Below, one piece after another: positions 4,126-39,694 of a stretch of 64,000 nt of DNA (position 1 is the stretch's first letter; every line of letters begins with the position of its first letter). The notes beneath the pieces are model-generated. The model worked only from the letters and a program-made list of their open reading frames with translations. It ran no database searches and was not told the DNA's origin. A program made the translations under genes and the position numbers. The stretch comes from Escherichia phage vB-EcoP-XT73: the sequence record OR757436.1; one strand, 5' to 3'.

Positions 4126-4134
4126 AAATGTATA
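4126..4134 (+). promoter_or_regulatory. AATGTATA promoter-like motif upstream of the 4174 gene
   Basis: aAATGTATAtagag about 40 bp upstream of the ATG; same core as the motifs near 9156 and 15352. Confidence 0.4.
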
Positions 4135-4173
4135 TAGAGTACAATAAGAATTTGTATTTTACAGGAGAGAGTT

Positions 4174-4500
4174 ATGTTAGATTTGAGTAAAGTGGCCCCG
4201 CCCACTGAAGAGATTACAAAATCCAAGGTGATGCAACAGTTTTATCATCGTGATATGCTTGGTCGCTTTATCAAGAATCGTGATGTTGTTGCTTGGTCTA
4301 TTGGTAATCAGGGATATCTGTTGAAGGTTCTTCAGGTTACAGGTTCAACTGCTAAGCGAGTTAAGGTGTATGACCCTGAAATGGGGCGTTCTAAGTCAGT
4401 AGACCCGCAGAACTGCATCGTAATTACCCAGCAGGTGATAGCAAATCTAGAAAGAAATGTAGCAAACTCTACTGAGTTAGAAGGAGAAGACCCTAAGTGA
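4174..4500 (+). CDS. hypothetical protein
   Basis: 108-aa ORF with AGGAGAGAG RBS upstream. Confidence 0.5.
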   Translation: MLDLSKVAPPTEEITKSKVMQQFYHRDMLGRFIKNRDVVAWSIGNQGYLLKVLQVTGSTAKRVKVYDPEMGRSKSVDPQNCIVITQQVIANLERNVANSTELEGEDPK

Positions 4501-4990
4501 TTCCAAAGGAATTGGAAGGGAAGATTGATGTAACAGAGGATGGTAGAGTATTTACTATAAAAAGTGGAAGGTTTTAACCCTCCACACTAATGGTGCCTAT
4601 TACAGAGTTACTATTTACTTTCCTGAAGGATTAAAGAATTTCTATGTCCACAGGCTGGTTGCTAGTAAGTACATACCGAACCCTGATAATCTTCCATGTG
4701 TCAACCATAAGGATGGCAATAAACTTAACAATCATAAAGATAATCTTGAATGGTGTACCCACCGAGAAAACTCTCAACATGCATCATCATTAGGTCTGAT
4801 GGTACAGAGGTTTGGAGAAGACAATCCGCAGTCTAAACTTACTCTAGAAGATGTAGAGTACTGTAGGAGAGTTTATATCCCTCGAGATAAAGAGTTTGGA
4901 GGCTCTGCCCTTGCAAGACGTTTTGGTGTCTCTCAGCAAGTGATATCAAAAGTTCTACTTAATCAAACTTGGAGGGAATATAATGCATAA
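4497..4990 (+). pseudogene. HNH homing endonuclease, interrupted by a frameshift at an A5 run (about 4559-4563)
   Basis: Frame 3 from GTG 4497 gives MIPKELEGKIDVTEDGRVFTIKSGRF then stops; the -1 frame continues YYRVTIYFPEGLKNFYVHRLVASKYIPNPDNLPCVNHKDGNKLNNHKDNLEWCTHRENSQHA to 4990. No in-frame start precedes the HNH core. Confidence 0.5.
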
Positions 4991-5546
4991 GAATGTTTTT
5001 GATTTACCTGAGATTGGTCGTGCCGAATATAATATGTTAGACCGATCAGAGCTTTCAATCTCTCGCCTTGAAACAATGCAGGGTATGATTAGTGGAAACA
5101 GCCTAGAACACATCCTGAGCTGCTTACAAGCTAACATAGAACTCTTGCATATCAAAGCTAAAAACTACCATTGGAACGTCTCTGGTGCAGGATTTCAGGG
5201 TGTTCATGGTATGTTTGATGAGCTGGAAGATTACGCACGACAAGTAGGAGATCGTATTGCTGAACGTATGCGTTACCACTGTGTTAAAGTGGACGCCACA
5301 GCAGCCAATTATCTCTCCCATGCTTGGTTCTCAGAGGGTAATGCTGACCTAGATATGGACGGTATGCTCTCTGATATGTGCATGACCTTGATGTGTATTA
5401 TTGAGAAGATGGATGAGTTTGATGGTGATTTAGCCACTTATCCAGTTGATCAGAGTATGCTTCAAGAAATTAATGAAGGTCTTGGCAAGTATTGCTACTT
5501 CGTCAAGAGCAACATGTCCCACTCAAGTGGCGATGTGTCTTACTAA
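4983..5546 (+). CDS. dps: Dps-like ferritin-family protein
   Basis: LHIKAKNYHWNVSGAGFQGVHGMFDELEDYARQVGDRIAERM aligns with the E. coli Dps ferroxidase region ([25 protein letters not shown]...DTMAERA), including the His/Asp/Glu positions. Confidence 0.7.
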   Translation: MHKNVFDLPEIGRAEYNMLDRSELSISRLETMQGMISGNSLEHILSCLQANIELLHIKAKNYHWNVSGAGFQGVHGMFDELEDYARQVGDRIAERMRYHCVKVDATAANYLSHAWFSEGNADLDMDGMLSDMCMTLMCIIEKMDEFDGDLATYPVDQSMLQEINEGLGKYCYFVKSNMSHSSGDVSY

Positions 5547-5608
5547 AAACCTCCGCCCTGTCTCCTAACCCGAGGTGGGGCGAACTTATTTATAAGGATA
5601 TAGATATA

Positions 5609-5787
5609 TGTTATCAGCAATCGTATGGGGTATTTGGGCTGTCTTTATTGGTGGTGGTATCTATTGGGCTTCTGGCAAGCTTATTGAAGAAACTCCTGAC
5701 AAGAAAGGTGAGATTCAAACAGCATCAACCATCATGGTTGTCGTAGCTGTTGTTATCCCATTCCTGCTTCACCTCCTGACTGCATAA
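5609..5787 (+). CDS. small two-segment membrane protein
   Basis: 59 aa (MLSAIVWGIWAVFIGGGIYWASGK...VVVAVVIPFLLHLL) with two hydrophobic segments; below the ORF-track length cutoff. Confidence 0.35.
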
Positions 5788-5796
5788 GGGTTTGAT

Positions 5797-5982
5797 ATGA
5801 TTTCACTGATTGTGTGGGCCGTGTGGTCGTTAATAGTTGGTACTGTTATATATAAAGCTCGAAATTTAGCAATTAAAGAAAACCCAGCAGAAGAGGATGT
5901 TAAAGCTATCAAGCTAGGCAGTGTTGTTCTGGTACATTTTGCTATAACACTACCTCTTGTTATTATTCTTTGTATGCTATAA
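5797..5982 (+). CDS. small two-segment membrane protein, paralogue of 5609
   Basis: MISLIVWAVWSLIVGTVIYKA...LVHFAITLPLVIILCML; same hydrophobic pattern as the upstream ORF. Confidence 0.4.
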   Translation: MISLIVWAVWSLIVGTVIYKARNLAIKENPAEEDVKAIKLGSVVLVHFAITLPLVIILCML

Positions 5983-6172
5983 GGAAACCAAAGAGTGAAA
6001 CTAAACCTACCTGAAGAATTACAAGCACATGCCATTATCGTTAGTGGCTGTGTGATGGGTCTTGGTCAAACAAAGAAGATTGCTCATGACTTAGCAAAAG
6101 GTCAGTATAAATCTTTTATTGTTGTTCCTGCTACCCAACGTCATATCAACCTGTTTATTAACAAGGAATAGA

Positions 6173-6445
6173 ATGTCTAAAGTGATTAAGTTTTATAGCG
6201 ATCAGTGTGCTCCATGTAAAGCAATGGCTCCTACCTTTGAGAAGGTTGTTAAGGAGTTCGATGTAGAAGTAGAAGAGATTAACATCCTTGAAGGTGATGG
6301 TCGTGAACAAGCTGTTAAGTATGGTGTAAGAAGCATCCCTGCTTTCGTTGTACCTGACCGTAATAGTGGTGCACACTATAGTCTCTCTGGTATGCAGACC
6401 GAAGCAAACCTGAAAGCATTCTTAACTACTGCCCTAGGTGTTTGA
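6173..6445 (+). CDS. thioredoxin
   Basis: FYSDQCAPCKAMAPTFEKV...KYGVRSIPAFVV aligns with the thioredoxin CxxC active site and the KYGIRGIPT strand. Start chosen at the internal ATG preceded by AAGGAA. Confidence 0.7.
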   Translation: MSKVIKFYSDQCAPCKAMAPTFEKVVKEFDVEVEEINILEGDGREQAVKYGVRSIPAFVVPDRNSGAHYSLSGMQTEANLKAFLTTALGV

Positions 6446-6651
6446 TTATGAAAAAATATTGGACGGTGGTATATTACCTCTACCAAGACCCGGCTATACC
6501 TGTTACAGAGCACTTTGCTACTCGTAAAGATGCTCGCCGTTTTAAGAAGGCTCTTAAGATGGCCCCAAAGATTTATAGTAAAGTAAGCTTACATAAATCA
6601 ACATTGTCAGAGATGGGAACCTTAGTGGTTTATTATGTAAAAGAATATTAA
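6442..6651 (+). CDS. small protein, paralogue family A
   Basis: MIMKKYWTVVYY...FATRKDARRFKKALK...LVVYY. Confidence 0.45.
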   Translation: MIMKKYWTVVYYLYQDPAIPVTEHFATRKDARRFKKALKMAPKIYSKVSLHKSTLSEMGTLVVYYVKEY

Positions 6652-6666
6652 TAAGGAAATTCACGG

Positions 6667-7323: not shown

Positions 7324-7508
7324 TGACACATAAAGTGTGTAGCTTCTGTAAGAAAGAGAAGACTATCATCAACTTCAAACCTAATCCTGTAACTGGTCTG
7401 TCTCATGTTATGTGTCACTCTTGTAGGATATATCTTGAAACAAAGCACACCATTAACAGGTTGCATTATTATCACCCAACAACATTCAAATTTAAGGTTG
7501 TTAAATGA
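7323..7508 (+). CDS. small Cys-rich (zinc-ribbon-like) protein
   Basis: MTHKVCSFCKKEK...MCHSCRIY; start taken at the internal ATG after GGAGAG. Confidence 0.4.
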   Translation: MTHKVCSFCKKEKTIINFKPNPVTGLSHVMCHSCRIYLETKHTINRLHYYHPTTFKFKVVK

Positions 7509-7708
7509 AAACATTATGGACTCTTGACTGTCAAGATGATGACGGAGAGCGTTGGACTTGGAAATATTTCCTAGGGAAACCAACACCCGAGAACCCTGCT
7601 TTGGATTGTGCTTCATATGAAGATGCTAAGAAGCTGGTAAATGGAGAAAAGGTTTGGTCTCCGGATAATGAAGTTCAGTACTTTTTAACAGAACGGAAAT
7701 TTTCATAA
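7505..7708 (+). CDS. hypothetical protein
   Basis: 67-aa ORF, overlapping start/stop with neighbours. Confidence 0.4.
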   Translation: MKTLWTLDCQDDDGERWTWKYFLGKPTPENPALDCASYEDAKKLVNGEKVWSPDNEVQYFLTERKFS

Positions 7709-8410: not shown

Positions 8411-9144
8411 GTCGTCGTCAATCACGGAAAGAATCACGGAAAGACCTTCGTCGGGAAGCACTTGTCACTCGTAAGGGTAAGCGCGAGTTTGAAGAGGTGG
8501 TTTTAGCAAAGCCTGTAGTCCCTCAGAACCAGTTCCAGTCTGAACTGCTCAATGCTATCAAGACTAAACAAGTTGTGTTCACAGACGCTCCTGCGGGCTG
8601 CGGGAAGACCTTTGTAATCACTTCCACAGTTATTGATGCACTGAAGAGTGGTAAGATTCAGAAGATCATTCTGAGTCGCCCTTCTGTTGGCATGGGTAAC
8701 TCACTTGGGTTGCTTCCGGGAGGAATGCGTGAGAAATTTGAACCATATCTGATGCCAATCATTGATGTTATTACTCAGAGATATGGTAAGGGGTTCTATG
8801 AATGCCAGCTCGGTAATAGTAACATTGAGTTTGTACCTCTGGAGTATCTCCGTGGTCGTTCTTTCAATGATGCTATCGTTATCGTTGATGAGTTCCAGAA
8901 CACCACTAAAGATGAAGCCTTCTCAATCATGACTCGATTGGGAGAAACCTCTCAGCTGTTCTGCATGGGTGATACAAACCAGCATGATATGCGTGGTCGT
9001 GAGAGTGGTCTTACTTGGGCTACTAACTTTATTGATGAACATGATCTGTATGAGTTCGCTGAGATTGTAGACGGCGAATCAGATGACATTGTTCGTTCTG
9101 GTTTCTGTAAAGCTATTGTTAAAGCAATGGAAAAGAAAGCTTAA
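8407..9144 (+). CDS. phoH: PhoH-like ATPase
   Basis: Walker A APAGCGKT and Walker B-like IVIVDEFQN in the PhoH arrangement. Confidence 0.85.
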   Translation: MSRRQSRKESRKDLRREALVTRKGKREFEEVVLAKPVVPQNQFQSELLNAIKTKQVVFTDAPAGCGKTFVITSTVIDALKSGKIQKIILSRPSVGMGNSLGLLPGGMREKFEPYLMPIIDVITQRYGKGFYECQLGNSNIEFVPLEYLRGRSFNDAIVIVDEFQNTTKDEAFSIMTRLGETSQLFCMGDTNQHDMRGRESGLTWATNFIDEHDLYEFAEIVDGESDDIVRSGFCKAIVKAMEKKA

Positions 9145-9155: not shown

Positions 9156-9164
9156 TAATGTATA
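9156..9164 (+). promoter_or_regulatory. TAATGTATA promoter-like motif
   Basis: acttaTAATGTATAct about 40 bp upstream of the 9201 start; shared with 15352. Confidence 0.45.
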
Positions 9165-9200: not shown

Positions 9201-9524
9201 ATGGCAGACCATGTAGGAAAGAGAGATTATGCACAAGAAAGACGTACCGCCATCGCAAGGGGTGAAACGGGAATTGGTAGCAAGAGCGGAGATGCTCAGC
9301 GCCACCGTGCACGTCGCATCGTTGAAAAGCGCGATGGAAAAGCTGCTGTCAGAGGTAAAGACGTTGGACACAAGCGAGCCATCAAGTCAGGAGGCTCTAA
9401 TGCGTCAAGCAACTTACGTGTTGAAACAGTCAGCGGAAATCGTTCAGCTGGCGGCAAAAGTGGAGATCGAGCTGGGAAGGCAGCTGGCGCTGCTAAGCGA
9501 AAAGGAGCTTTAAGCTCCTCGTAA
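9201..9524 (+). CDS. basic, Gly/Arg/Lys-rich low-complexity protein
   Basis: AAGGAG sits 7 nt upstream of ATG 9201. An alternative overlapping frame (9229..9513) encodes a helical-looking 94-aa product; the sequence alone does not decide between them. Confidence 0.35.
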   Translation: MADHVGKRDYAQERRTAIARGETGIGSKSGDAQRHRARRIVEKRDGKAAVRGKDVGHKRAIKSGGSNASSNLRVETVSGNRSAGGKSGDRAGKAAGAAKRKGALSSS

Positions 9525-13750: not shown

Positions 13751-13967
13751 AATGGAATACATTGATAAATACTCAAGTGAAGATTCAAAAGACGCTGAAG
13801 TTTTGTTCGTACTGAAAACAGACTGTTTAGAACATGGACAGCTTATCAACTTTATTGAATTGGCAAAACTTAAAGAAGAAATTGATCAACTATACAGTGA
13901 TGAGCAATCCAGATTACTTTCCTTGTCCCTGCTAGGTGACTTAACCTGTGATGGTTGCATGATATGA
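13740..13967 (+). CDS. hypothetical protein
   Basis: Small ORF; either ATG 13740 or 13752 is a possible start. Confidence 0.35.
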   Translation: MWCKMEYIDKYSSEDSKDAEVLFVLKTDCLEHGQLINFIELAKLKEEIDQLYSDEQSRLLSLSLLGDLTCDGCMI

Positions 13968-14437
13968 TAGAAGATCTTCTGGATGAGTTCTTTGTTTGTG
14001 ATTTATCATCTGGGAAAGTGTTCTGGAGAATTCACAACGGAACAAAATGCAGGCGGGGTGACGAGGCAGGAACTTCAAAAAAGGATGGAAGAGTGCTTAT
14101 TCGATTGAAAGGAAGAGCCATTTACAGATACCACATCATTTGGTATTTTGCTAATGGTGTTTTACCTAAAGATCAAATAGATCACATTGATCGAAACCCT
14201 TCCAACGATTCCATAGGCAACCTTAGAGAAGTTAACAACGAGAATAATTCTTGGAACAAGGGTTTGAACTCTAACAACACATCAGGAGCTAAGGGCGTAT
14301 ACCTCAATTCAAGAGGGAAGTACATAGCCAACATACATATTAGAGGTAAAACTAAATACCTAGGAACTTTCTCAACCCTAGAGGAAGCCGTCTCTGTTAG
14401 AAACAGAGCGGAGGAAGATCATAAATTAACTATCTAA
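13955..14437 (+). CDS. HNH endonuclease with AP2-like DNA-binding domain
   Basis: RYHIIWYFANGVLPKDQIDHIDRNPSNDSIGNLREV (HNH core) followed by GAKGVYLNSRGKYIANIHIRGKTKYLGTFSTLEEA (AP2-like). Confidence 0.7.
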   Translation: MHDMIEDLLDEFFVCDLSSGKVFWRIHNGTKCRRGDEAGTSKKDGRVLIRLKGRAIYRYHIIWYFANGVLPKDQIDHIDRNPSNDSIGNLREVNNENNSWNKGLNSNNTSGAKGVYLNSRGKYIANIHIRGKTKYLGTFSTLEEAVSVRNRAEEDHKLTI

Positions 14438-14446
14438 GAGGTCTTT

Positions 14447-15085
14447 ATGGCTGAAGTTTATTTTGCAGGAGATGGTCACTTAGGCCATCGAAACATCTGT
14501 AGTTTTCGTAAGCAATTTAAAAACATCGAAGAACATGACAAAGCAATTCTGGCTGCTTTTGACCACGTAACCAAACGTGATAAAGTTTTCTTTACCGGTG
14601 ATTGGGTGTTTGAAAAGTATGCCCTTGACATCATCGCTGAAGTTAGAGGAGAGAAGCATCTGGTCTTAGGAAATCATGACAGATTAGAACTTCTCCCTGA
14701 TATGATGAAAGTCTTCCGTAGAATCTCTGGTGACTTTAAATATAAAGAGTTTTGGGTAACTCATATTCCTATTCACTCTGATGAAATGAGAGGAAAGTAT
14801 AATATCTATGCTCATACTCATAATTCTACTATCAGAGATTGGAGATACTTTTGTACTTCTATGGAACAGATTGATTACAGAGCTGTGTCTCTGCAAGAAA
14901 TTCGTAAAGAGTTCGCTGCAAGAAAAAGCATTTTAGAAACTACATTATTTCCAGTGGGAGATAAAAGTAGAGAGCAATTGGATGAAATCCGAAAGAAGAT
15001 TCAATTAGAATCTCAAGCAGAATCTAACTTACTTTTTCAGAGAACAGTAGAACAAACTAGTTTTAAAGGTCTTTTAGAATGGTAG
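14447..15085 (+). CDS. calcineurin-like metallophosphoesterase
   Basis: GDGHLGH, TGDWV, LGNHD and HIPIH motifs. Confidence 0.7.
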   Translation: MAEVYFAGDGHLGHRNICSFRKQFKNIEEHDKAILAAFDHVTKRDKVFFTGDWVFEKYALDIIAEVRGEKHLVLGNHDRLELLPDMMKVFRRISGDFKYKEFWVTHIPIHSDEMRGKYNIYAHTHNSTIRDWRYFCTSMEQIDYRAVSLQEIRKEFAARKSILETTLFPVGDKSREQLDEIRKKIQLESQAESNLLFQRTVEQTSFKGLLEW

Positions 15086-15279
15086 AAGTTATTGTTTTAA
15101 GTTAAGTTTTCTTTTGATTTTAATAGAGAATCAAAGTCCTAGGAGTCCTCAACCTAAATCAAGGATTTCCTCAATTCTCTATTTTTATCTCGCAGGTGTC
15201 TCCTGCCCTTCGGTACTTGCAAGGGTTACGATGATTGCCCAATATACAAGCCTGCAATAGCTTTACTAGCTATACAATA

Positions 15280-15288
15280 TATACATTA
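15280..15288 (-). promoter_or_regulatory. inverted copy of the TAATGTATA motif within an AT-rich intergenic region
   Basis: Plus-strand tatacatta is the reverse complement of taatgtata; it points away from the plus-strand gene at 15419. Confidence 0.3.
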
Positions 15289-15351
15289 CTAGTGTGTTAT
15301 ATCTACTACCAAAGATACTTATATTATATAGTACCCTTATCGGTATAAGCG

Positions 15352-15360
15352 TAATGTATA
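15352..15360 (+). promoter_or_regulatory. TAATGTATA promoter-like motif
   Basis: gcgTAATGTATActatac about 60 bp upstream of the 15419 start. Confidence 0.45.
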
Positions 15361-15418
15361 CTATACATAACCGCTCAAAGAGAGCAACAATCTTTCAAAT
15401 TAAATAAGGAAATTAATA

Positions 15419-16165
15419 ATGAGCATGATCCCAACTATCGCAACTTCTTCTCGTAAATCCAACTACGATATTATCCCTGATGGTGAATATGAAGCACGTA
15501 TCGTTCGTGTAGTAGGTTTGGGTGTTCACAATCGTGATCCTTGGGTTGACCCGAAGACCAAAGCAGTAACTCCTAAGAATCCAGCTTTCCGTATGGATTT
15601 GGCTTTCGAGCTGATTGGTGTTGATGCTACTGGTAAAGATTCCGATGGTAAGGCATTAGAACCACGTCCTGCTTGCCAGTTCAAGAGTTATGATGTAAAC
15701 CCACGAGCTAAGAACTCTGGTATTCTTGATCTCTGCAAGATGATTGACCCAAGCATTCAAGCACTGAAAGGTGATCTGTCTTGGTTTAAGGATGTGTTGT
15801 TAGGTCAGCCTGTTAACATTCTGGTTAACTCCTACACTAACAAAGCTGGTGAAGTTAAAAACTCCATCAAGACCATTTCTCCAATCCCAACCAAATATCG
15901 TGCAGCAGTTGGTGAAGCTCGCAGTCCTCTGGTATTCTTCGAACCGTATGCGGAAACCGATGAGAACGTAGCATCCTATCAACTGATGTTCCCGTTCCAG
16001 CGCAACCTGCTTACTCAAGCTAATGACGCTAAGAACATGCCTCTGGCTGGTCGTGAAATTACTCGTGCTTCTGAAACAGAGCAGAAAGAAGCTACTCCTT
16101 CAATCCCTACGATTGATAAAGAGCCTGCTTCTACTTATGAAGATGACAACGACAGCCCATTCTGA
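15419..16165 (+). CDS. single-stranded DNA-binding protein (candidate)
   Basis: 248 aa ending in an acidic tail with terminal Phe (YEDDNDSPF), as in SSB and T7 gp2.5; located in the replication block. Confidence 0.5.
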   Translation: MSMIPTIATSSRKSNYDIIPDGEYEARIVRVVGLGVHNRDPWVDPKTKAVTPKNPAFRMDLAFELIGVDATGKDSDGKALEPRPACQFKSYDVNPRAKNSGILDLCKMIDPSIQALKGDLSWFKDVLLGQPVNILVNSYTNKAGEVKNSIKTISPIPTKYRAAVGEARSPLVFFEPYAETDENVASYQLMFPFQRNLLTQANDAKNMPLAGREITRASETEQKEATPSIPTIDKEPASTYEDDNDSPF

Positions 16166-16186
16166 TAACTCTCCTTGTTATAGCTT

Positions 16187-16212
16187 AGCCACCTTCGGGT
16201 GGCTTTTTTCGT
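16187..16212 (+). terminator. rho-independent terminator
   Basis: agccaccttcgggtggct hairpin followed by tttttcg. Confidence 0.65.
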
Positions 16213-16222
16213 TGGAGTCAAT

Positions 16223-16573
16223 ATGCAAAGCACTTTAAGTGATAATCTAGGATTTGTTATCTTCTCTGCTCTGGTGTTCTTTGGTGGTATGAAGTTTAAT
16301 GAGTACAGAACAGACAGTAACAATCTGGATAAAGAAAAGCATCAACAAGAGTTAGAGATTGAAAGAAGTAAGGCAGCTGATGAAGTTGCTCAGAGAGTTC
16401 TTACCGGTTTATCCAACTGGAAGAAGAACACGGAAACCGTTTATAAAGAGATGCATTATGAGAAAACTAAACCAGTTTTTTATAATGTCTGCGCTAGTGA
16501 TGACTACATCCGCATGTTCAACGAGCGACAGCAGCAGGCAATCGATGCCCTTACCAACAAACCTAAAAGCTGA
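16223..16573 (+). CDS. i-spanin (Rz-like) candidate
   Basis: N-terminal hydrophobic segment LGFVIFSALVFFGGM followed by a charged helical domain; a second ORF starts inside it in another frame. Confidence 0.4.
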   Translation: MQSTLSDNLGFVIFSALVFFGGMKFNEYRTDSNNLDKEKHQQELEIERSKAADEVAQRVLTGLSNWKKNTETVYKEMHYEKTKPVFYNVCASDDYIRMFNERQQQAIDALTNKPKS

Positions 16574-16714
16574 ATGTAGGGTTGACCTGCCTCTTTTAGA
16601 GAGTGCTCAAGGAAAGGCACTAGCCACTACGTTGGAGTGGTATCAGGACCAGTACACAGAATGTGCTGCTAATCACAATGGATTGTTAGAAGCTCTGAAA
16701 GAGCGTGGAGTAGA

Positions 16715-16718
<4 letters not shown>
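16458..16718 (+). CDS. o-spanin (Rz1-like) candidate, overlapping the 16223 gene
   Basis: MRKLNQFFIMSALVMTTSACSTSDSS looks like a signal peptide with a Cys near the cleavage region. It starts inside the upstream gene in a different frame and extends beyond it. The lipobox is atypical. Confidence 0.35.
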
Positions 16719-18091
<1,373 letters not shown>

Positions 18092-18092
18092 T

Positions 18093-18914
18093 ATGGAAGA
18101 CGTTAAGCTCCCTGAAGTAGCTATAGTGGATGCTGACGTTCTTCGATATGAAGTGGGTGCTCTTACTCAGGAGCATCCCTTTCTTGACACAGGACGTGTT
18201 CCAGTTGATTACAATTTCATGATTGAACGACTTCAGTACAAGATAGATACTATCATTGCTCGCTCAGGTTGCAGTAAGGTTGTGTTCTACTTCAGCGAAG
18301 GTGGTAACTTCCGTTTTGATGTTGCTAAGCAGCAAGACTACAAAGCAAATAGACCTCCCGGAGAAAGACCTTTTCACTGGCAAAATGTTGGTGATTACAT
18401 TAAAGGTAAATATGAATACATAGATGTATTTGGGAGAGAGGCTGATGATGCACTAGCTGAAAGGCAACGTAGGGATAAGAACACTATCATCTGTACTAGA
18501 GACAAGGATTTGTTGATAACTCCCGGATGGCACTACCGTTGGGCTTGTGGAGAAAGACAGAAAGAAGTTCCTCCTCACTATGTATCTGATTTAGTTTCGT
18601 GGCAAAACTTCTTCTATCAGATGTTGATTGGAGACGGTACAGATAATATCCCCGGATGTGGAGAACGTAAAGAAGTTATGTGGGGAGGTAAGCTCCAGCT
18701 TCGACGTCAAGGAATAGGGAAGAAAGCAGCAGCTAAGTTGTTGGCTGGTGTTACAGACAAGTGGACCATGTATCATATAGTACGAATGGAATATTATAAG
18801 AAGTTCGATACTGAAGATGAAGAGAAGATGCTTGAGAATGCTCGGCTGCTCTTTGTTGGTCAGACTCCGGAAGACCTATTTGATTGGTCGTGGCTCGAAA
18901 AAACTTGGGAATAA
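18093..18914 (+). CDS. 5'-3' exonuclease / flap endonuclease (FEN family)
   Basis: DADVLRYEV, YKANRPP, GREADDALA, TRDKDLLI and GDGTDNIPGCG in the FEN order. Confidence 0.8.
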   Translation: MEDVKLPEVAIVDADVLRYEVGALTQEHPFLDTGRVPVDYNFMIERLQYKIDTIIARSGCSKVVFYFSEGGNFRFDVAKQQDYKANRPPGERPFHWQNVGDYIKGKYEYIDVFGREADDALAERQRRDKNTIICTRDKDLLITPGWHYRWACGERQKEVPPHYVSDLVSWQNFFYQMLIGDGTDNIPGCGERKEVMWGGKLQLRRQGIGKKAAAKLLAGVTDKWTMYHIVRMEYYKKFDTEDEEKMLENARLLFVGQTPEDLFDWSWLEKTWE

Positions 18915-18924
18915 GGATATTATA

Positions 18925-19104
18925 ATGGGTAAATTTGACTATCGTTCATATGATGAAAACTCCTCCAATCGCGAATCTCGAAAAGAGCAGCGTATTAAAT
19001 ATAGTCATGAATTAGGCAATCGCTATATTAAAGAAAAGCGTGAAAAAGTATCACATCGAGTAGATAAACGTGTATGGGAAGAAGCTGATTATGGCGAAGT
19101 CTGA
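18925..19104 (+). CDS. hypothetical protein
   Basis: 59-aa charged ORF starting at the internal ATG (MGKFDYRSY...). Confidence 0.35.
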   Translation: MGKFDYRSYDENSSNRESRKEQRIKYSHELGNRYIKEKREKVSHRVDKRVWEEADYGEV

Positions 19105-19492
19105 GAAGACTAGATGCTCTGGAATGTGGACTGAAGCTCGTTACAATTCTTTCATCAAGTCAGGGATTCGTTCTCTGACTAGAAAGTGGAAGCCCATGTT
19201 CGATGCACTAGCAGACGCCAAGACAGAGCAGAAGATTAATCCAAAAACAGGCAGACTGGCAATGCACTTTAAGTGTGCCATGTGTGGTTCTGATCACCCT
19301 GTAAAGGATATGGCTATAGATCATATAAATCCTATCGTTCCTCTTGACCATGAAGCAACTTGGGATGAAATTATCTCTCGTGCTCTGTGTGAGAAAGAAG
19401 GTTTTCAGGTTCTGTGTAAAGACCCTTGTCATAAACTAAAAACTAAGATGGAAAATGATGCAAGAAAACAATTCAAAAAAGGAAATGAGTGA
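19070..19492 (+). CDS. HNH endonuclease
   Basis: CAMCGSDHPVKDMAIDHINPIVPLDHEATWDEIISRALCEKEGFQVLCKDPCHKLK; HNH core with Cys pairs. Confidence 0.7.
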   Translation: MYGKKLIMAKSEKTRCSGMWTEARYNSFIKSGIRSLTRKWKPMFDALADAKTEQKINPKTGRLAMHFKCAMCGSDHPVKDMAIDHINPIVPLDHEATWDEIISRALCEKEGFQVLCKDPCHKLKTKMENDARKQFKKGNE

Positions 19493-19712
19493 TGATCAAA
19501 AATCTACGCAACAAGTGCTTCGCTTTCGCTATCGCAATTGGAGAGGCGAGATTGCTGACCGGTCCGTTATTCCACTCCGAACCTCCGTTGCTAGCTCCCG
19601 TTTTCATAACGGTGGCAAACCTTGTTGGATTATGACAGCGATAGATGTAGAGAAAGATGAGATTCGAGAGTTCAAACTCTCTGACATTATTCAGTACTAC
19701 GATTTAATCTAG
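19455..19712 (+). CDS. hypothetical protein
   Basis: 85-aa ORF; start uncertain. Confidence 0.35.
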   Translation: MMQENNSKKEMSDDQKSTQQVLRFRYRNWRGEIADRSVIPLRTSVASSRFHNGGKPCWIMTAIDVEKDEIREFKLSDIIQYYDLI

Positions 19713-20131
19713 GAACTGACATGATCACACAAGCAGATAAAAATAAACTCTTCGACTTAATCCACGATCTATTAGAAGCTCAGAGCTTTATTGACAATGC
19801 CGAGACTTGGGAGATGGAAGCAGCTGGAAAAGCTTTTGATGAAAGCGAAGAGAAACTTACTAATTTTATAAACACAATCTAGGAGGGTATATGAATGAAG
19901 AAGTTGTTATCCTTGGCAGTAAATCAGATTGGTTCTATGGAGGCATCTCAGGATGCTTTGAAGATGAACATCCAGATTTCTGAAGAGAATTGGGATGTAT
20001 GAGGATGAATTTGATGGATTTTGAAAAGATAAAACAGAGCAAAATTGATATGATGAAAAAATTCAAAGCGGCTTATGATAAAGCTGTTAAAGAAGGAACT
20101 ATCACTTACAAGAAAATCTAGAAATAAATAA

Positions 20132-23100: not shown

Positions 23101-24586
23101 CTTTCAGTTTCTTCAACCCACCAATAGCTTTCTTCATCTCTGGAGAAACATTATCAGCCATCTTCTGTAGTTCAGCAGCTTTCTCTACAAAGTTATTAAA
23201 GTCTTCACCATCACGAGCTTTGAATCGATTTGCTTCATTGTAGAAAGTCTTGTAAGCATCAATGAAATCACGGTCAGCTTGTGTACGGTTCTTAATGTCA
23301 ATCGGACTACCAGTAAAATCACCAGAAGCTCGGAGAGAAACTAACTCACGATCAAGATTATCCAGAACATCTGTAAGAGCTTTAGTGTTATCCTTTGTGT
23401 AATCAGCCATTGCATCTTTCATAGCAACAGCTTGCTTCTGGTTGTGCTCGTTATCAGCGAATGCTTTACCACGAACTTTAGAAGGAGAAGCCAAAGGATT
23501 GAGGCCAGGAATGTTAGAATGTTCTTTCTGAACAGAAGCAGCTTTCTCGGCACGAGCTTGGTCTGTATTAAGGATGCGCTGAGCAGCAGGAGAGTCTACA
23601 GCAACAGCATCTGTGATACGGAATCCGTTCTCATCCAGAAGGTTAAGGGCAGAAGCGGCGTTAGCAGTTTCAGCTTTAGAGTATGCTTCTTTCAGCTCAT
23701 CAATGTTCTTAGCACTACGAATTAATTCATCATCAGCAGCAATGTCAGTCTTTGCATACTCTGGAGTATTCTTAAAGACAGCAGAATCTGGACGACTAAT
23801 CAAACCATGGACACCACCAACTGCACCACCGAATGCAGCACCCATAGCGCCTTCTTCAATAGCACCTTCTAAGACATTAGAAAAGGTTGTGTCATCACCA
23901 TGTTTGTTCTGAGCTTCAGCAGCACCTACAAGAGCACCACCTTTAGCACCAGCCACTGCGTTACTAGCAACGTTCTGACCAATACGACCAAGTGTAGACT
24001 CAGCTGTACCAACAGCACCCGGAAGGATTCTCTGAGCTGCATAGTTAGCACCACCAACTAGAGCGGCATCCAGAACAGACTTATCTTCTCCCTCTTCAGG
24101 AGTTTGGTCTGCATATGCACGACCTGTCTCACGACCTGCAATGATAGCAGCGGCAGCTAATGGGTTAGCAACAGTCAAACCAATATCACCAACAACGCCA
24201 GCATATTGCCCAGCAGTTTTACCAATCCCATCCTCAATCTTATCCATACGATCTTTCAGAAGGTTCTGAGAGTTCTCTTGGATACGCTTACCATAACTAG
24301 TTTGTGCTCCAGCTAGATTCTCACCAATCTCAACTAAACCACCAATACCTTTAGCAGCACTAGCTGCAATGTTTGCACCACCAGATTGAAGAGCATTTGA
24401 CACACCTTGAGCAAACTCACCTATAGCACCACGTTCTTCTTGTTGTGGTTGTGCTACTGGTTGTTCCTCAGGAATAGAGCCACCTGCTGCCTTATATTGT
24501 TCTCTCATTTGAGCTTGACGCTCCGGAGAGGCATTCAGATACGCAGGAGCTTTGGAAGCTTCTTCCCACGGTTTAATGTTAGCCAT
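20165..24586 (-). CDS. large internal virion / ejection protein (about 1470 aa)
   Basis: Gly/Ala-rich N-terminal third, then long charged helical regions. Start taken at MANIKPW (ATG about 24586), preceded by AAAGGAGACG; the track ORF extends 15 codons further upstream. Confidence 0.55.
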   Translation of the reverse strand: MANIKPWEEASKAPAYLNASPERQAQMREQYKAAGGSIPEEQPVAQPQQEERGAIGEFAQGVSNALQSGGANIAASAAKGIGGLVEIGENLAGAQTSYGKRIQENSQNLLKDRMDKIEDGIGKTAGQYAGVVGDIGLTVANPLAAAAIIAGRETGRAYADQTPEEGEDKSVLDAALVGGANYAAQRILPGAVGTAESTLGRIGQNVASNAVAGAKGGALVGAAEAQNKHGDDTTFSNVLEGAIEEGAMGAAFGGAVGGVHGLISRPDSAVFKNTPEYAKTDIAADDELIRSAKNIDELKEAYSKAETANAASALNLLDENGFRITDAVAVDSPAAQRILNTDQARAEKAASVQKEHSNIPGLNPLASPSKVRGKAFADNEHNQKQAVAMKDAMADYTKDNTKALTDVLDNLDRELVSLRASGDFTGSPIDIKNRTQADRDFIDAYKTFYNEANRFKARDGEDFNNFVEKAAELQKMADNVSPEMKKAIGGLKKLKGMPEGFNPIQDAYTLNNTAKFMSNQDRGWTSLTDDGFREASSPSLVMNTLGAAKYALNRFSSQRARSQRVKQQESNSEAIRSLARGDLEVARAKSTADEARAKMEEEPVVGDIKFKTQNDVETEPVREPSSSTVTEENLSSSAPQETPLTARDLVAQRRAIRQAEQRRAEEEAAQAQEAPVEQAPQAEPLPARNPLEERRAMEQQRAQEEAAQAPEPTVEEPTVKAEPLPARAPKAPKEAVQDVKPASGVERLAAMSSAARQATKDRAERFARSLYSKAAKAKATAENFLAYKGDPKELMRRIRQEDNAINTERHEEMARNQLSSQQGIATAKNNTVRTNFAEWVKERGLPEDIATKALRAEEKGLGGNVTNLDSLKRRAERLYQKQREDEFDRLYQQALEENKAFDKKDAPKLVDQKKELQSEIDTLIDSEPLRPAQKDAMRKLMNDYVDGKFKSSEKAGREEALEVGQMKDVWDGFINTYNREVNAFNKANKNSQYEAAAKHLQAREERLATLKNKAQARSDAKAAVENERKTLEAIAAQKSEIEKMMEGLPKPVREAQESRTLKQLAAHHDKNSPVPPEKFRSYIERIHNAESDYLDRQRRLTDAEEDARQAKWNKMYEQAEEMNRKFDVDKRVKRSEELKAAQERENDLMAVQRQRDDIHRRLVRTMEDKGISREDAEAFAGSYMDNRYALLEKPMTPTEHQNARSRIEADVEKFAKKYESMTPIEKEIVKVTGDTEGKIDNLDSDTRKAIEEAQKVDSDIKKLQEEEMEMEKIRSALPDDEKSQANSDILESIKQQEEVFADKVEKAFLSGKSLDELASVAEVLDRVHGADKAGNNRRFVRALQTAAENKKKYGDNPVAWFSADDYSAIAKLGASSAGGNKSRALEKIFGSTAEQAKSKLLGRDDVAKMRRVIEENPDVKIPSYKTTNRTEYLQFLEKFNDEGKPKIKRGSLSEKLERSKRQSRLRVRVRPKE

Positions 24587-24633: not shown

Positions 24634-24653
24634 TAGAAGGCAGGACTTAGGTC

Positions 24654-26309
24654 TTATTGAGCGAACCAGCTGGTGTCTTCAACAGCTGATAAAGCACCGT
24701 TTAGTTTAGGATTGGTTGCTGCACCACCAACTGCCTCTTCTGCCTGTTCAGAGAAAACACCGAGTGGGTCATAGAAACCACCAGAAGGAATTGCACGGTT
24801 AACCAATGCAGTAGCCCTCTTCTTATCCATACCTGAACCAATGTACGCTTCGATAGTAGCTCTCTTAGCATCAGCAACACCTTTCATTGCAGATGTATGA
24901 CCAACATTAGCCTGCTTACGGGCATAAGAAAGAGCAGAGTCAGTAGGACGCCATCCTGACTTAAGAGCAAACTTGTTGCCAACACGAATGAAGATTGATG
25001 GGTCTTCTGCGAAGTGTCCCAAGTCTTCTTCGGTAAGGGAACGAGTAGCACCGATTTCAGCCCTTGCGGAGTTCATGATAGCCTGCATGTAAGCAGAACG
25101 AGCTGTCTGGTAGTCTTTATCTTTAACTGCTTTGTCAGCCAAATCCAAGTCTTTGTTGGACTGGTTAAACAGACCACCTTTCTCTGCCCACTGCTTAGCA
25201 ACTGTACCTTCAGCTGTGTTCTGAGCAAGACGAACTTCTTTCGGGTTAAAGTTAAAACTCTGAGCAACTTGTTCAGCACGTTCAGCCTTAACTTTATCAC
25301 GATAACCAATCAACTCTTTCTGACGTTCAAAGTTCATGTCAGTTCTCTTTTCAGCAGCACGACGAGTTTCCTCAGCACGTTCACGCATAGACTGCTCTTG
25401 AATCTGTTGACGTCTATCCCATTCAGCATTCTGACGTTCTTCACGAGCAGCATACAGAGCTTCCTGTTGAAGAGGGTCTTTAGCTTTCATCTTCAGAAGA
25501 GAAGGATCACCCTGAGCTATAGCAGCTGCAATTGAGTCTTGAGAGAAACCTTGTTCAATCAGAGCATCACGGTTAGCTTCCAGTTGCTTTTTAGTCTCAT
25601 CTTGATTAGCCATCCCCTGACCAATCTGGAATGCTTCGATAGGAGATTTACCTGACATGATAGAAAGACCTACACCCATTAAACCTGTATAGAAACTAGA
25701 GTTCTGATAGAAAGGTTCTTTCTGTAACTTCTTCCAAGCTTCTGAAGGATCTTTAGCTTTTGCAACTTGCAAGATATCATTGTTAACACGCTCTTGATCT
25801 TTAGTACGAGTAGCAGCAGCCATTCCGTCACCGGTGTCTTGTCCTTGAGCAAGAGTATTAACAACACCTTGTGCTTGTTCAACCTGAGAAGGAGTAAACT
25901 CCATAGGACCAGTTTCTAGTGGCTTGGCAGGAGGTGTCACCGGAAGAGGGTCACTAGGCATAAGTCCAGCATCCTGCAAACCTTGATCAGTAGATAAATT
26001 AGGATTAGCTGCTACAGGGGCTGGTGCTCCAATGTCAATACCCTGAAGACTTGTTGGGGTTCCTTGATTCTGTTGTTCCATAAGACGTTGCTGGAATCCC
26101 GGATTCACCATAGCATTCTGATCTTCTTCTGCCTGAGAGACAAGACCTGCGAGAGATGAAGGTACAGCAGGACGCTGGTACATAGAAACATCCGCTGTCT
26201 GAGTAGGTCTAGCCATATAAGGAGAGGCCGAAGCCGCTCCCGGATTAACACCATAGAAAGTATTTCTCGGGTCACGACTTCTGACCTGAGCGTAAGTTGT
26301 CTGTTGCAT
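24654..26309 (-). CDS. virion structural protein (internal protein candidate)
   Basis: 551 aa; in the virion block, tightly spaced with neighbours. Confidence 0.45.
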   Translation of the reverse strand: MQQTTYAQVRSRDPRNTFYGVNPGAASASPYMARPTQTADVSMYQRPAVPSSLAGLVSQAEEDQNAMVNPGFQQRLMEQQNQGTPTSLQGIDIGAPAPVAANPNLSTDQGLQDAGLMPSDPLPVTPPAKPLETGPMEFTPSQVEQAQGVVNTLAQGQDTGDGMAAATRTKDQERVNNDILQVAKAKDPSEAWKKLQKEPFYQNSSFYTGLMGVGLSIMSGKSPIEAFQIGQGMANQDETKKQLEANRDALIEQGFSQDSIAAAIAQGDPSLLKMKAKDPLQQEALYAAREERQNAEWDRRQQIQEQSMRERAEETRRAAEKRTDMNFERQKELIGYRDKVKAERAEQVAQSFNFNPKEVRLAQNTAEGTVAKQWAEKGGLFNQSNKDLDLADKAVKDKDYQTARSAYMQAIMNSARAEIGATRSLTEEDLGHFAEDPSIFIRVGNKFALKSGWRPTDSALSYARKQANVGHTSAMKGVADAKRATIEAYIGSGMDKKRATALVNRAIPSGGFYDPLGVFSEQAEEAVGGAATNPKLNGALSAVEDTSWFAQ

Positions 26310-34987: not shown

Positions 34988-34999
34988 GAGGCACCTCCA

Positions 35000-35854: not shown

Positions 35855-38800
35855 TCATATCAATCCATAGATGATGTTGTGAAGAACACACCCCCCAACT
35901 GCGCCACCTATGTTGAAATTAATTTCAGCCTTACTGGACCCTGGAGGAACTGAATCAATAACAGCATAGAAACTGAACGAGTTGTTACTAGGTATGTAAT
36001 ATCCAATAGACTCAGAAACTGCATTACCTGCTGAATCTAGAAACCTAATAGATGCTAGTGTAGTGGTTGTATTCTTAGCCCAAAAACCAAACTGAAAGTA
36101 TCTTCCGGGATGACACTCACTCACTGATTGGGTGAAGTTTGCCGAGCTAGTCGTATCTGGGACACCAAAAGAGAATGATGTGTTAAACATAGGAGACGAA
36201 CTCGGAACATCATTGGGTTGAGAAACTGACACTACCCCTGATCCTGTTTGACTAAATGTCCAGTTAGATGTATTTAAGAATTGCCCGGAACCATTACTAA
36301 GACTATTAATGTAAGGGCTTACAATAGATCCAAGATCCCACCTACTTAAGACAAAACCAGCTCTAGGGTAACATCCGTTAGACACAACTCTCTTACTATC
36401 ACCGCCGATGAGTTGGCGAGTAGGGAAACCAGTGGCTAGAGTATTGTTGCCATACAGAGGTAGAGAGCAGTTTGTCAGAGAAACAAAACCATCCCCATTA
36501 CTTACTATAGGGACAGAACTAAAACCTACAGGGACCAAAATTGTCGAATCTTTTATGCTCAATCTCGAACTACCATTAACAGAAAAAGAAACAAAAGACT
36601 GATCCGGTTGATACTCAATGTTCCCATTAGAAAAAACAACTGTGGCGTTGTCTGTCATTATAATGGTTGGGTCAAAATATCCAGACTTTTTCCCAGCAGG
36701 AAGTGAACACGTATCAAAGATGAATTGTCCATTCTCAAAAGTAAAAGGTCCTCCGTTATCCACGCACCAGCAGTGATTGAACTTTATAACTTCTCCAGAG
36801 TTCGCTCTTGATTTAAAAACAACCGTGTCCGTAAAGCTTCTACTTATTGCACATTTGTCAAAAAGGATCCTATATGAATTATCAAGGAATTCAAGACCAG
36901 CTGTTGAGATAAAACCACAATTTTCTATCCGAACTTCCGACACCTCCCCACTATCAGTCCCTCCAATTACAACCTTTCTGGCACCTAGACCAACAAAGGA
37001 CACTCCTGATATCTTAGCTGTTGAAGAAATCGAATCTCTAAGCCCATAATCTGTGTTTGAATTTATAATCTTCAAGAAATATTGACCTGTTGCTCCAGCC
37101 CCTTCCTGAAGCTTACAATTATTATAGCCTATCAAGGCTCCTTTAGAAACGTCAATAGCTATCTCAGATAATACGGATCCAGAAGTTGGAACTATACAAT
37201 CGTAACCAGAGGAGTTCACTTTGTTGATATAAACAGCAATATCCCCGCTGCCAGTGTAGCCTGCATCAAACACAGAAGCTTCTCCAGAGAATAGCAACCT
37301 CTTCCATTTTACAGAAACTCCACTGAAAACCACCACCCCATCAGCTGTTTCTGAATTGTCTATTGCTACAAACACACCCCCTCCCATATTAGCCCCTTCG
37401 ACATAAGATCTTACAAAGACTTTGTCGCCTACAGAAGCTCCCTCTAAGGTCTGAAGTTGTTCAATAGAGGGGAGATCTCCAATAAGATTAAACCCTGTAG
37501 GCAGGCCTAGTTCTTGAGAGACCACATTAGATACCTGACCTAATGCCACTGCTTCGTCACTCTCAACGGCGTTTGGTATACGTATAGGTTGAGAAAAAGT
37601 TACCTTATTTGTCATCGAAGTAATATCTGAGTTAGCCCCACTCTTAGCCGCAACCAGTGCGAGCCTTGCCGTGTCCGGAGAAGAGGCTCCTGTACCACCT
37701 TTCGAAATAGGAACAATATTTTCTACAGAAACATCACCTAATCCTAAATTAGATCTAGCAATAGTAGTATTAATTGCTCCTGTACCACCTTTCGAAATAG
37801 GAACAATATTTTCTACAGAAACATCACCTAATCCTAAATTAGATCTAGCAATAGTAGTATTAATTGCTCCTGTACCACCTTTCGAAATAGGAACAATATT
37901 TTCTACAGAAACATCACCTAATCCTAAATTAGATCTAGCAATAGTAGTATTAATTGCTCCTGTACCACCTTTCGAAATAGGAACAATATTTTCTACAGAA
38001 ACATCACCTAATCCTAAATTAGATCTAGACCCCTCTGCCGTGGAAGAACCCGTACCTCCTTGGAGCAGAGAGAGAGGTGTGGTTAGGCCTGAGAGGGAGG
38101 TAATATCTGAGTTAGAGCCACTCTTAGCTGCACCGGTAATCTGCTCAACAGTATAGTCTCCGGCCTGCGGTGATACAACACCTGTCCGTGAGTTAAAACT
38201 GGAAACCACCTGTAAAGAAACTTCTCCTGTTTGAGCAACACCCCCATTAAGAGATACTGACCGAACAGAGGGGATTAGATTAGCAATGTCAACCATTGAG
38301 GTTCTATACAGCCCACCAGAGTCCTTATCTACGAAAAAACCATAATCATCCGACACAGGAATACCAACAGGAGTTTCCCCAATGTCTGAAATTGTACCAT
38401 CTGTTCCGTCACGACCCGGCTTCCCTTCTGGAATACCAAAAGAGAATACACCAGTTGTATTGTCATAGGAACCCGTTGCCAAACTACCTGGGGGTAGTAG
38501 CGTCGTCTGTACCGTCATATTAGAAATAATATCAAGCTGTTCTAGGACTTGCTGCGTTGCTTCTCTTGAAAGATCTGTAGCTGCATTTGTATTGTCAATA
38601 GCCTGTCCCGTAGACTGAATAAGACCTAGAAGAGTCTGATTCTGTGCTTCAAAGTCTTCTTTAAGTTGCTTAATGTCAGACTCTAGCAGGAACCCTTGAG
38701 CGTATAGACGTTCTACCTCAGCAAGAATCTCATCTACTGAAGAATATTTAGTCTGGGATAACAGCGCCCAATATTTAGCATCAGCTGCATACTCAGCCGC

Positions 38801-38890
38801 TGATTTATAAGCACCAATTGATCCTTCTGTAGCACCAAATTGGCCTACATTATTCACCGCTGTAGGTGCTGAATTGTTGTAACTGATCAT
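35855..38890 (-). CDS. tail fibre / tailspike protein with repeated fibre motif
   Basis: 1011 aa; four or more copies of SNLGLGDVSVENIVPISKGGTGAINTTIAR, and a Gly/Ser/Asn-rich C-terminal half. Confidence 0.7.
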   Translation of the reverse strand: MISYNNSAPTAVNNVGQFGATEGSIGAYKSAAEYAADAKYWALLSQTKYSSVDEILAEVERLYAQGFLLESDIKQLKEDFEAQNQTLLGLIQSTGQAIDNTNAATDLSREATQQVLEQLDIISNMTVQTTLLPPGSLATGSYDNTTGVFSFGIPEGKPGRDGTDGTISDIGETPVGIPVSDDYGFFVDKDSGGLYRTSMVDIANLIPSVRSVSLNGGVAQTGEVSLQVVSSFNSRTGVVSPQAGDYTVEQITGAAKSGSNSDITSLSGLTTPLSLLQGGTGSSTAEGSRSNLGLGDVSVENIVPISKGGTGAINTTIARSNLGLGDVSVENIVPISKGGTGAINTTIARSNLGLGDVSVENIVPISKGGTGAINTTIARSNLGLGDVSVENIVPISKGGTGASSPDTARLALVAAKSGANSDITSMTNKVTFSQPIRIPNAVESDEAVALGQVSNVVSQELGLPTGFNLIGDLPSIEQLQTLEGASVGDKVFVRSYVEGANMGGGVFVAIDNSETADGVVVFSGVSVKWKRLLFSGEASVFDAGYTGSGDIAVYINKVNSSGYDCIVPTSGSVLSEIAIDVSKGALIGYNNCKLQEGAGATGQYFLKIINSNTDYGLRDSISSTAKISGVSFVGLGARKVVIGGTDSGEVSEVRIENCGFISTAGLEFLDNSYRILFDKCAISRSFTDTVVFKSRANSGEVIKFNHCWCVDNGGPFTFENGQFIFDTCSLPAGKKSGYFDPTIIMTDNATVVFSNGNIEYQPDQSFVSFSVNGSSRLSIKDSTILVPVGFSSVPIVSNGDGFVSLTNCSLPLYGNNTLATGFPTRQLIGGDSKRVVSNGCYPRAGFVLSRWDLGSIVSPYINSLSNGSGQFLNTSNWTFSQTGSGVVSVSQPNDVPSSSPMFNTSFSFGVPDTTSSANFTQSVSECHPGRYFQFGFWAKNTTTTLASIRFLDSAGNAVSESIGYYIPSNNSFSFYAVIDSVPPGSSKAEINFNIGGAVGGCVLHNIIYGLI
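37686..38030. repeat. tandem array of identical 90-bp repeats (about 3.8 copies) inside the tail fibre gene
   Basis: gctcctgtaccacctttcgaaataggaacaatattttctacagaaacatcacctaatcctaaattagatctagcaatagtagtattaatt recurs at about 37686, 37776 and 37866 with no mismatches seen, plus a partial fourth copy. Confidence 0.85.
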
Positions 38891-38899
38891 ATTATCTCC

Positions 38900-39652
38900 T
38901 TATACACGAGAAGTACGAATACCATAAATATCAGGCAAGCTGCTCTGAAGCCGAGTCATGTTATTCGGAATTGCGATAGGTGAACCTGAGTACTCTTGTT
39001 TCTTATTCTGCTCTACCATTTCATCAAGGATAGCTTTTCCTAATGCTGACCATTTCTGAACTCCGTTGTCATCTTGAACAAACAAGCAAGCATGACGTAG
39101 AGTAAAGTACAGAAGAAGTTCTGGTGCGATAGTAAGAATAGCACTAGTGTCTGTGTCTTCATGGAATTCCGGTGGGTCTGCATAATAACTAAGAATTACT
39201 GAGTTTTCTGCTGGAATCAAAGGACTTCCATCATCAGGGTAATACGGAGTGTCTGCTTCGATGCTAGGATAGAAAATGAAACGACTACCGAAACGAGCAA
39301 AGTTAACAGGTTGATTGTTCCAATGAGATGGGTTAATTGTTCCATGCTGTCTACGATAGCTAATCTCTTCAGGAGATGTTACTTGGAAGATTGTACCATC
39401 TTTGGCTCTCATCATCCATTGAGCTTCTAAGTAATCAGGAGGAATGTAAGCTACTCCATCTTTAATATCTAAATACACTTCTTTTTCCAGAGGAGGGATA
39501 CGTAAATTACGATAAATCTCTTTCTCTGCAAAGTTAATAAAGTTTGGAATTTGATTAACAAATTCGTCATCGTCCCTATCTGCCCAGAGGGCCACGGCCT
39601 TCTTTAGCCACCCATAGGTATTGATGGGGTATTGAACATCTGGCATTGCCAT
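38900..39652 (-). CDS. virion protein (head-tail adaptor candidate)
   Basis: 250 aa, between capsid genes and tail fibre. Confidence 0.35.
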   Translation of the reverse strand: MAMPDVQYPINTYGWLKKAVALWADRDDDEFVNQIPNFINFAEKEIYRNLRIPPLEKEVYLDIKDGVAYIPPDYLEAQWMMRAKDGTIFQVTSPEEISYRRQHGTINPSHWNNQPVNFARFGSRFIFYPSIEADTPYYPDDGSPLIPAENSVILSYYADPPEFHEDTDTSAILTIAPELLLYFTLRHACLFVQDDNGVQKWSALGKAILDEMVEQNKKQEYSGSPIAIPNNMTRLQSSLPDIYGIRTSRV

Positions 39653-39685
39653 AGGTTGTCCTCCTTGTTATATGTAGACAAAGAA

Positions 39686-39694
39686 TATACATTA
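39686..39694 (-). promoter_or_regulatory. TAATGTATA promoter-like motif (minus strand)
   Basis: Plus-strand tatacatta about 35 bp upstream of the minus-strand start at 39652. Confidence 0.45.

Follow-up and report, generated by a model that had tools for sequence, protein, structure and literature searches.

A recurrent 9-bp motif in Escherichia phage vB-EcoP-XT73 matches the gp36 promoter element of phiEco32-like coliphages and has a conserved inverted copy

The biochemistry of the promoter class of phage phiEco32 was reportedly described by Pavlova et al. in 2012. Six promoters were found experimentally upstream of phiEco32 genes 6, 13, 26, 40, 58 and 68, and these promoters, which depend on the phage sigma factor gp36, are described as sharing a single consensus element, tAATGTAtA, with transcription starting 6-8 bp downstream (PMC8948821, PMC4331800, PMC4281155). 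Site by site, Table S3 of Lavysh et al. 2022 (PMC8948821) gives TAATGTAgA for P6, TAATGTATA for P13, P26, P40 and P58, and aAATGTATA for P68, with an identical promoter set in five other phages of the phiEco32 subgroup. A 2025 cryo-electron microscopy (cryo-EM) structure of the open complex of RNA polymerase (RNAP), gp36, gp79 and P68 (PDB 9M7Y) reveals that the N-terminal domain of gp36 recognizes -14A, -13A, -12T and -11G, that its C-terminal domain contacts -37G and -34A, and that gp79 displaces sigma-70 region 4 and stabilizes gp36 (PMC12276001). Here we analyze a 64,000-nucleotide (nt) stretch of Escherichia phage vB-EcoP-XT73 (OR757436.1), hereafter the window, in which an earlier note made from the letters alone had described a recurrent 9-bp motif, TAATGTATA, as a phage-specific promoter element possibly read by a sigma-like protein encoded nearby. 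The motif is the published gp36 promoter element of phiEco32-like coliphages, and since this promoter class has already been described, the finding is correct but not new; the only part that appears undescribed is a seventh, inverted copy, which we call Pinv, together with the structured stretch downstream of it.

The 9-bp motif and its phiEco32 counterparts

Sequence comparison places the window as a phiEco32-like Kuravirus: across positions 15000-20000 its identity is 99.5% with Escherichia phage vB-EcoP-XT32 and 93.8% with phiEco32, and 98 phage records match this region, almost all of them coliphages of the Gordonclarkvirinae. Its orientation is reversed relative to the phiEco32 reference (NC_010324), with position 1 corresponding to phiEco32 50747, and from there it runs through middle genes on the plus strand, late structural genes on the minus strand and part of the early region. 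Using blastn of the window against phiEco32 and a motif scan of phiEco32, we found that six motif sites correspond one-to-one with the six experimentally validated phiEco32 promoters, upstream of the same genes and on the coding strand. The three middle sites lie on the plus strand and comprise the orthologs of P68 (4126-4134, AAATGTATA; phiEco32 46862, minus strand; gene 68 start at 4174), P58 (9156-9164, TAATGTATA; phiEco32 42937, minus strand; gene 58 start at 9201) and P40 (15352-15360, TAATGTATA; phiEco32 36632, minus strand; gene 40 start at 15419). The three late sites lie on the minus strand and comprise the orthologs of P26 (24625-24633, TAATGTATA; phiEco32 26014, plus strand; gene 26 start at 24586), P13 (39686-39694, TAATGTATA; phiEco32 9101; start of gene 13, encoding a virion structural protein, at 39652) and P6 (47373-47381, TAATGTAGA; phiEco32 1678; gene 6 start at 47361). 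The two window copies with one mismatch are exactly the two published variant promoters, the P68 ortholog carrying aAATGTATA and the P6 ortholog TAATGTAgA. Both the proposed role as a phage-specific promoter element and the likeness to phiEco32-type sigma promoters that the earlier note had pointed to are thus borne out, position by position and variant by variant.

A search of the whole window on both strands, with 100 dinucleotide-preserving shuffles as the null, recovered five exact copies of TAATGTATA, at 9156 (plus), 15280 (minus), 15352 (plus), 24625 (minus) and 39686 (minus), where 0.74 were expected and none of the 100 shuffles gave five. The description of a recurrent motif near genes on both strands holds, as do the inverted exact copy at 15280 and the one-mismatch copy at 47373, which is TAATGTAGA on the minus strand; the copy at 4126, which had been taken as exact, is AAATGTATA and carries one mismatch. 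All seven sites fall between genes in a window that is ~86% coding and 14% intergenic; at the 24625 site a 7-base overlap with an open reading frame (ORF) is due to an in-frame upstream ATG, the orthologous gene 26 start being the downstream one given above. Six of the seven sites face the following gene, and the gaps from motif end to start codon are 39, 36, 58, 38, 33 and 11 nt at 4126, 9156, 15352, 24625, 39686 and 47373, respectively, so that a spacing first put at 35-60 bp is close for the five sites to which it referred (33-58 nt).

The earlier note had also suggested that an "ECF-sigma-like" protein (ECF, extracytoplasmic function) encoded at 17178 reads the motif, and this suggestion is supported. 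The product of ORF 17178-17825 is identical to phiEco32 gp36 at 210 of 214 positions (98%), and the true gene probably starts one codon after the program-made ORF start, at 17181 (17181-17825, plus strand). All published DNA-contact residues of gp36 are retained (E79, H80, Y83, R84, W90, S91, S94, N95, Y186 and R187), the only relative in the PDB is the gp36 chain of 9M7Y (9m7y_F, E=5e-144), and PHROGs labels the product an RNA polymerase sigma factor (phrog_1740). The ECF designation fits only loosely: the protein is a two-domain sigma factor with sigma2-like and sigma4-like domains, and it scores below the Pfam Sigma70_r2 threshold (19 versus 24 bits). Gene 79, at 52601-52849 in phiEco32, corresponds to a position ~1.9 kb outside the window on its left side.

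The best explanation overall, in which we have very high confidence, is that the motif is the core element of gp36-type middle and late promoters. Sequence identity, orthologous position, the sigma ortholog and its contact residues come from the present analysis, and the mechanism below borrows start sites, sigma dependence and temporal class from the phiEco32 literature. Host RNA polymerase with sigma-70 would first transcribe the early genes, after which the phage two-domain sigma factor would bind the host core polymerase, its N-terminal, sigma2-like domain recognizing the motif as a -10-like core element (tAATGTAtA, with AATGTA at -14 to -9) and its C-terminal, sigma4-like domain touching bases near -37 and -34. 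Transcription would begin 6-8 bp downstream of the 9-mer, and gp79, a small phage protein, would displace sigma-70 and stabilize the gp36 open complex. The middle genes on the plus strand would be driven from 4126, 9156 and 15352, and the late structural and packaging genes on the minus strand from 47373, 39686 and 24625.

Sequence upstream of the 9-mer is consistent with this mechanism. In an alignment of 32 promoter instances from seven site classes in five genomes, position -34 is A in 32 of 32 and position -38 is T in 29 of 32, with G or A at -37 and a purine at -36, giving a weak common signature T-R-R-N-A at -38 to -34 at all seven sites. Conservation of -34A and of a purine at -37 fits the cryo-EM contacts of the gp36 C-terminal domain at these two positions. 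Two sub-types stand out against this background. The P68 ortholog carries GGTAGTAGAT at 4104-4113 (plus strand; -37 to -28), which contains the contacted -37G and -34A, and the P26 and P13 orthologs carry TAAGACCTA at 24648-24656 and 39709-39717, respectively (both minus strand; -38 to -30), an element common to P13 and P26 in every aligned genome. Scanning IMG/VR, we found the composite of TAAGACCTA and the 9-mer in all five Kuravirus-like genomes and nowhere else, and the composite of GGTAGTAGAT and the 9-mer exactly twice in each of these five, at P68 and Pinv. Nine further matches to the GGTAGTAGAT composite in other IMG/VR contigs were rejected as chance, since their contexts are unrelated and their number is as expected. 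Jointly with the Pinv RNA proposed below, and as tentatively as that RNA, we suggest that gp36 promoters are bipartite in all classes, consisting of T-R-R-N-A plus the 9-mer, a pattern that is in line with the 2025 structure and qualifies the earlier description of a single element. That the upstream sub-types, GGTAGTAGAT at P68 and Pinv and TAAGACCTA at P13 and P26, set middle versus late timing is speculation.

Several observations weigh against this account of the motif. With up to one mismatch allowed, the window holds no overall excess, with 19 copies observed against 20.9 expected, so the exact-copy enrichment does not extend to the looser motif, the 9-mer alone is insufficient to define a promoter, and the copies at 4126 and 47373 need independent support; among the 14 one-mismatch copies these two alone have it, from orthology and not from counts. 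ES17 and SU7 lack the P58-type motif and KBNP1711 lacks the P6-type motif, and the published six-promoter set is thus not universal in the subfamily, where the P13, P26, P40, P68 and Pinv motifs are universal among the genomes compared. Finally, that the window phage would behave as phiEco32 does draws on their near-identity, and the functional assignment rests on it.

The value of the motif finding lies in a correct transcription map, in which terminators delimit three middle units and three late ones. Terminator-like hairpins, GC-rich and followed by a T-run, stand directly upstream of the P13 ortholog (39749-39726, minus strand) and of the P6 ortholog (47412-47397, minus strand), placing the units in the order terminator, then promoter. 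The P6 hairpin overlaps the -38 to -32 region of P6 (TGGGAGG). At gene 6 the 11-nt gap between element and ATG, with a start 6-8 bp downstream, predicts a leader of 3-5 nt and a nearly leaderless mRNA, and the predicted leader is without an AGGAG Shine-Dalgarno sequence; the label of small terminase given earlier to this gene was not confirmed, PHROGs listing its product as of unknown function. At 15352-15370 lies a 19-bp palindrome that is nearly perfect and is conserved in relatives, TAATGTATAcTATACATaA; the P40 element makes up its left half, and the other strand consequently carries a copy with one mismatch, TTATGTATA. This palindrome could function as a site for a regulator or form a structure at the 5' end of the transcript. 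In the early region, a tRNA-Arg (anticodon TCT) at 59608-59682 (plus strand) is the same as the annotated phiEco32 tRNA-Arg.

The inverted copy Pinv and its predicted transcript

Pinv is the exact TAATGTATA copy at 15280-15288 on the minus strand, placed back-to-back with P40 within the 315 bp that separate genes 40 and 41 and present in phiEco32 at 36704 (plus strand). Upstream of it, at 15301-15310 (minus strand; -37 to -28), stands the element GGTAGTAGAT, which P68 also has, with equal spacing to its 9-mer, and which includes the G and A touched by gp36 in the cryo-EM structure. Pinv is absent from the six-promoter lists in the secondary sources covered (PMC8948821, PMC4331800, PMC4281155), a set outside which the primary 2012 paper falls.

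Pinv is kept in 18 of 18 fetched relatives from the genera Kuravirus, Suseptimavirus and Nieuwekanaalvirus and in five of six metagenome contigs (23 of 24 in all), including genomes without the P58 or P6 motif. Both the 9-mer and the upstream element are invariant and the 12-nt spacer between them is free to vary among relatives; fixed elements with a variable spacer are what a bipartite promoter usually shows. Where an insertion of ~180 bp parts Pinv from P40, in ES17-type genomes, Pinv remains joined to the conserved sequence downstream of it. Scanning metagenomes added only one loop variant of this arrangement and one contig with a mutated motif. The architecture is not traceable out to the more distant relatives L008-L010 (contigs of 82-90 kb; gp40 67-69% identical), which carry no inverted copy upstream of the gene 40 homolog. 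In these contigs TAATGGATA occurs at ~2370-2400, where the intergenic region is short and holds tandem AGCTT-rich repeats, and may reflect a shifted promoter specificity.

The predicted Pinv transcript and its conserved non-coding core span 15122-15273 (minus strand) and comprise three hairpins, the first at the 5' end (15273-15257), the second pairing GCAGG with CCUGC and the third a long one that ends at 15122. The predicted +1 at 15273 opens the 5' hairpin, a stem of 6-7 bp that exists in five sequence versions among relatives. Its pairs show compensatory changes, from U-A to G-C and from C-G to U-A or A-U, along with a change from G-C to G-U that pairs only on the Pinv-sense strand, and its covariation score exceeds those of all 500 shuffles and all slid controls (16 distinct sequences). 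In all 16 sequences, folding is more stable for the sense strand than for the complementary strand (-46.8 versus -39.5 kcal/mol). The core of ~100 nt formed by the GCAGG/CCUGC hairpin and the long hairpin is 93-98% identical across genera, compared with 82-85% for the adjacent gene 40; the GCAGG hairpin is invariant, as is the stretch between the long hairpin and Pinv. No ORF follows Pinv on the minus strand, and an Rfam search of 14800-15500 returned nothing but a miRNA match at the level of chance (E=0.27), well short of the gathering score. A simple terminator scan of 14900-15500 found nothing, the hairpin loop exceeding the limit of the scan.

From these sequence features we judge the balance to be even on whether Pinv is one more gp36 promoter, belonging to the P68 (middle) type and producing a structured non-coding RNA of ~150 nt. 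A little less securely, we propose that Pinv, conserved across three genera of the Gordonclarkvirinae, makes a ~150-nt RNA that could act as a small RNA or as an origin-activating or priming transcript. If active, Pinv would extend the regulatory scheme of phiEco32 by a non-coding RNA or by a transcript linked to the origin and would offer work on gp36 a second, naturally occurring instance of the P68-type -35 element, a lead of modest interest to specialists in phage transcription.

Alternative explanations

The alternative that survives best, which we rate as less probable than a working promoter and yet a substantial contender, is that Pinv does not function, being either the relic of a P40 or P68 duplication or a decoy that binds the sigma factor, and that the conserved core is only the terminator of the upstream plus-strand operon. 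Several observations weigh against a Pinv transcript or favor this alternative. Our searches found no published start site for Pinv, and the minus strand beyond it is, as noted, without an ORF. In one relative (ERZ1034915 NODE-75, near 9053) Pinv reads TAATATATA, with the critical -11 G lost and the downstream core intact. The long hairpin is followed by TTTTT on the plus strand, resembles an intrinsic terminator in that direction, and probably also terminates the upstream plus-strand operon. The covariation in the 5' hairpin rests on few independent changes, and only two pairs carry double changes. Against a non-functional Pinv stand the invariance of both promoter elements across a variable spacer, the retention of the copy where P58 or P6 has been lost, its continued association with the downstream core despite the ES17-type insertion, and the compensatory changes in the 5' hairpin, with G-U pairs workable only on the Pinv-sense strand. 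A terminator on the plus strand would moreover explain part of the conservation of the core but not the invariant segment between hairpin and Pinv, which lies beyond that terminator.

We consider it unlikely, but worth stating, that the divergent P40/Pinv pair and the structured core form a replication origin at which the Pinv transcript would prime or activate synthesis, in the manner of the promoter-plus-AT-rich origins of T7 and T4. The location is suggestive, within a cluster of replication genes in a phage that encodes a T7-like DNA polymerase and a primase-helicase, with adjacent AT-rich DNA and the GC minimum of the window at 14-16 kb, and the core of most relatives contains direct repeats, TAGGGACT-CC-TAGGGACT, with a 10-bp period. 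In the window itself, however, the repeat spacing is 9 bp and not 10, and GC skew shows no inflection at 15.2 kb and instead tracks the direction of transcription, leaving an idea that rests wholly on analogy. Our literature searches found no Kuravirus transcription start map and no mapped origin in this phage group beyond the papers cited here.

It is highly improbable that the sites are instead host sigma-70 promoters, or sites used by both holoenzymes, at which the host holoenzyme would read the 9-mer as an atypical extended -10 element. Overlap of sigma-70-like hexamers with some of the middle promoters is suggested in the genome paper on SU10 (PMC4281155), and a weak sigma-70-like match (9 of 12) overlaps Pinv, but such matches are no commoner in the site regions than in shuffles, and in vitro transcription and cryo-EM demonstrate that P26 and P68 are used by the gp36 holoenzyme, with sigma-70 being shut off by gp79 (PMC12276001). 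Chance recurrence of a functionless AT-rich 9-mer in AT-rich intergenic DNA, with which the near-expected one-mismatch count and the single shuffle in 100 that reached four exact copies would agree, is effectively refuted by orthology to promoters experimentally validated in phiEco32, with variants identical across three genera, and is opposed as well by the exact-copy excess and the wholly intergenic placement.

Comparison with known systems

The gp36-type promoters of the window are closest to those of phiEco32, from which they differ in nothing essential. The two phages share the 9-mer together with its variant at each site, the orthologous placement of all six promoters, the -37G/-34A context at P68 and the inverted copy (phiEco32 36704, plus strand), and their sigma factors are 98% identical and do not differ at any DNA-contact residue. 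Two local differences are evident: the sequence upstream of the window P58 ortholog is unrelated to its phiEco32 counterpart, and upstream of P40 and Pinv, at 13955-15085, the window has ORFs for an HNH homing-endonuclease-like protein (Pfam HNH_3) and a calcineurin-like phosphoesterase (Pfam Metallophos), which have no blastn match to phiEco32 and replace its small ORFs 41-43.

Salmonella phage 7-11, a related podophage of the C3 morphotype, likewise has late promoters at equivalent genome positions that are read by a distant sigma homolog encoded by the phage, SaPh711_gp47. Its consensus is by contrast the bipartite GTAAtg-16-aCTA, it has no TAATGTATA sites, no middle class and no gp79 homolog, and its sigma factor is only ~15% identical (PMC8948821).

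Bacterial ECF (group IV) sigma factors share with gp36 a two-domain design in which a sigma2-like domain is joined to a sigma4-like domain. They differ in their promoters, which have a conserved AAC -35 element and a CGT-type -10 element, whereas the gp36 promoter is dominated by the 9-mer, and gp36 falls under the Pfam Sigma70_r2 threshold.

The late promoters of phage T4, TATAAATA, are read by gp55 together with gp33 and the sliding clamp, and offer a parallel in which a minimal phage sigma factor redirects the host core polymerase to a strongly conserved element of the extended -10 type, the canonical -35 element being weak or missing. The proteins of the two systems are unrelated, the T4 activator is a DNA-loaded clamp where the phiEco32-type activator is gp79, and the phiEco32-type sigma factor, unlike that of T4, has a sigma4-like domain that contacts -37 and -34.

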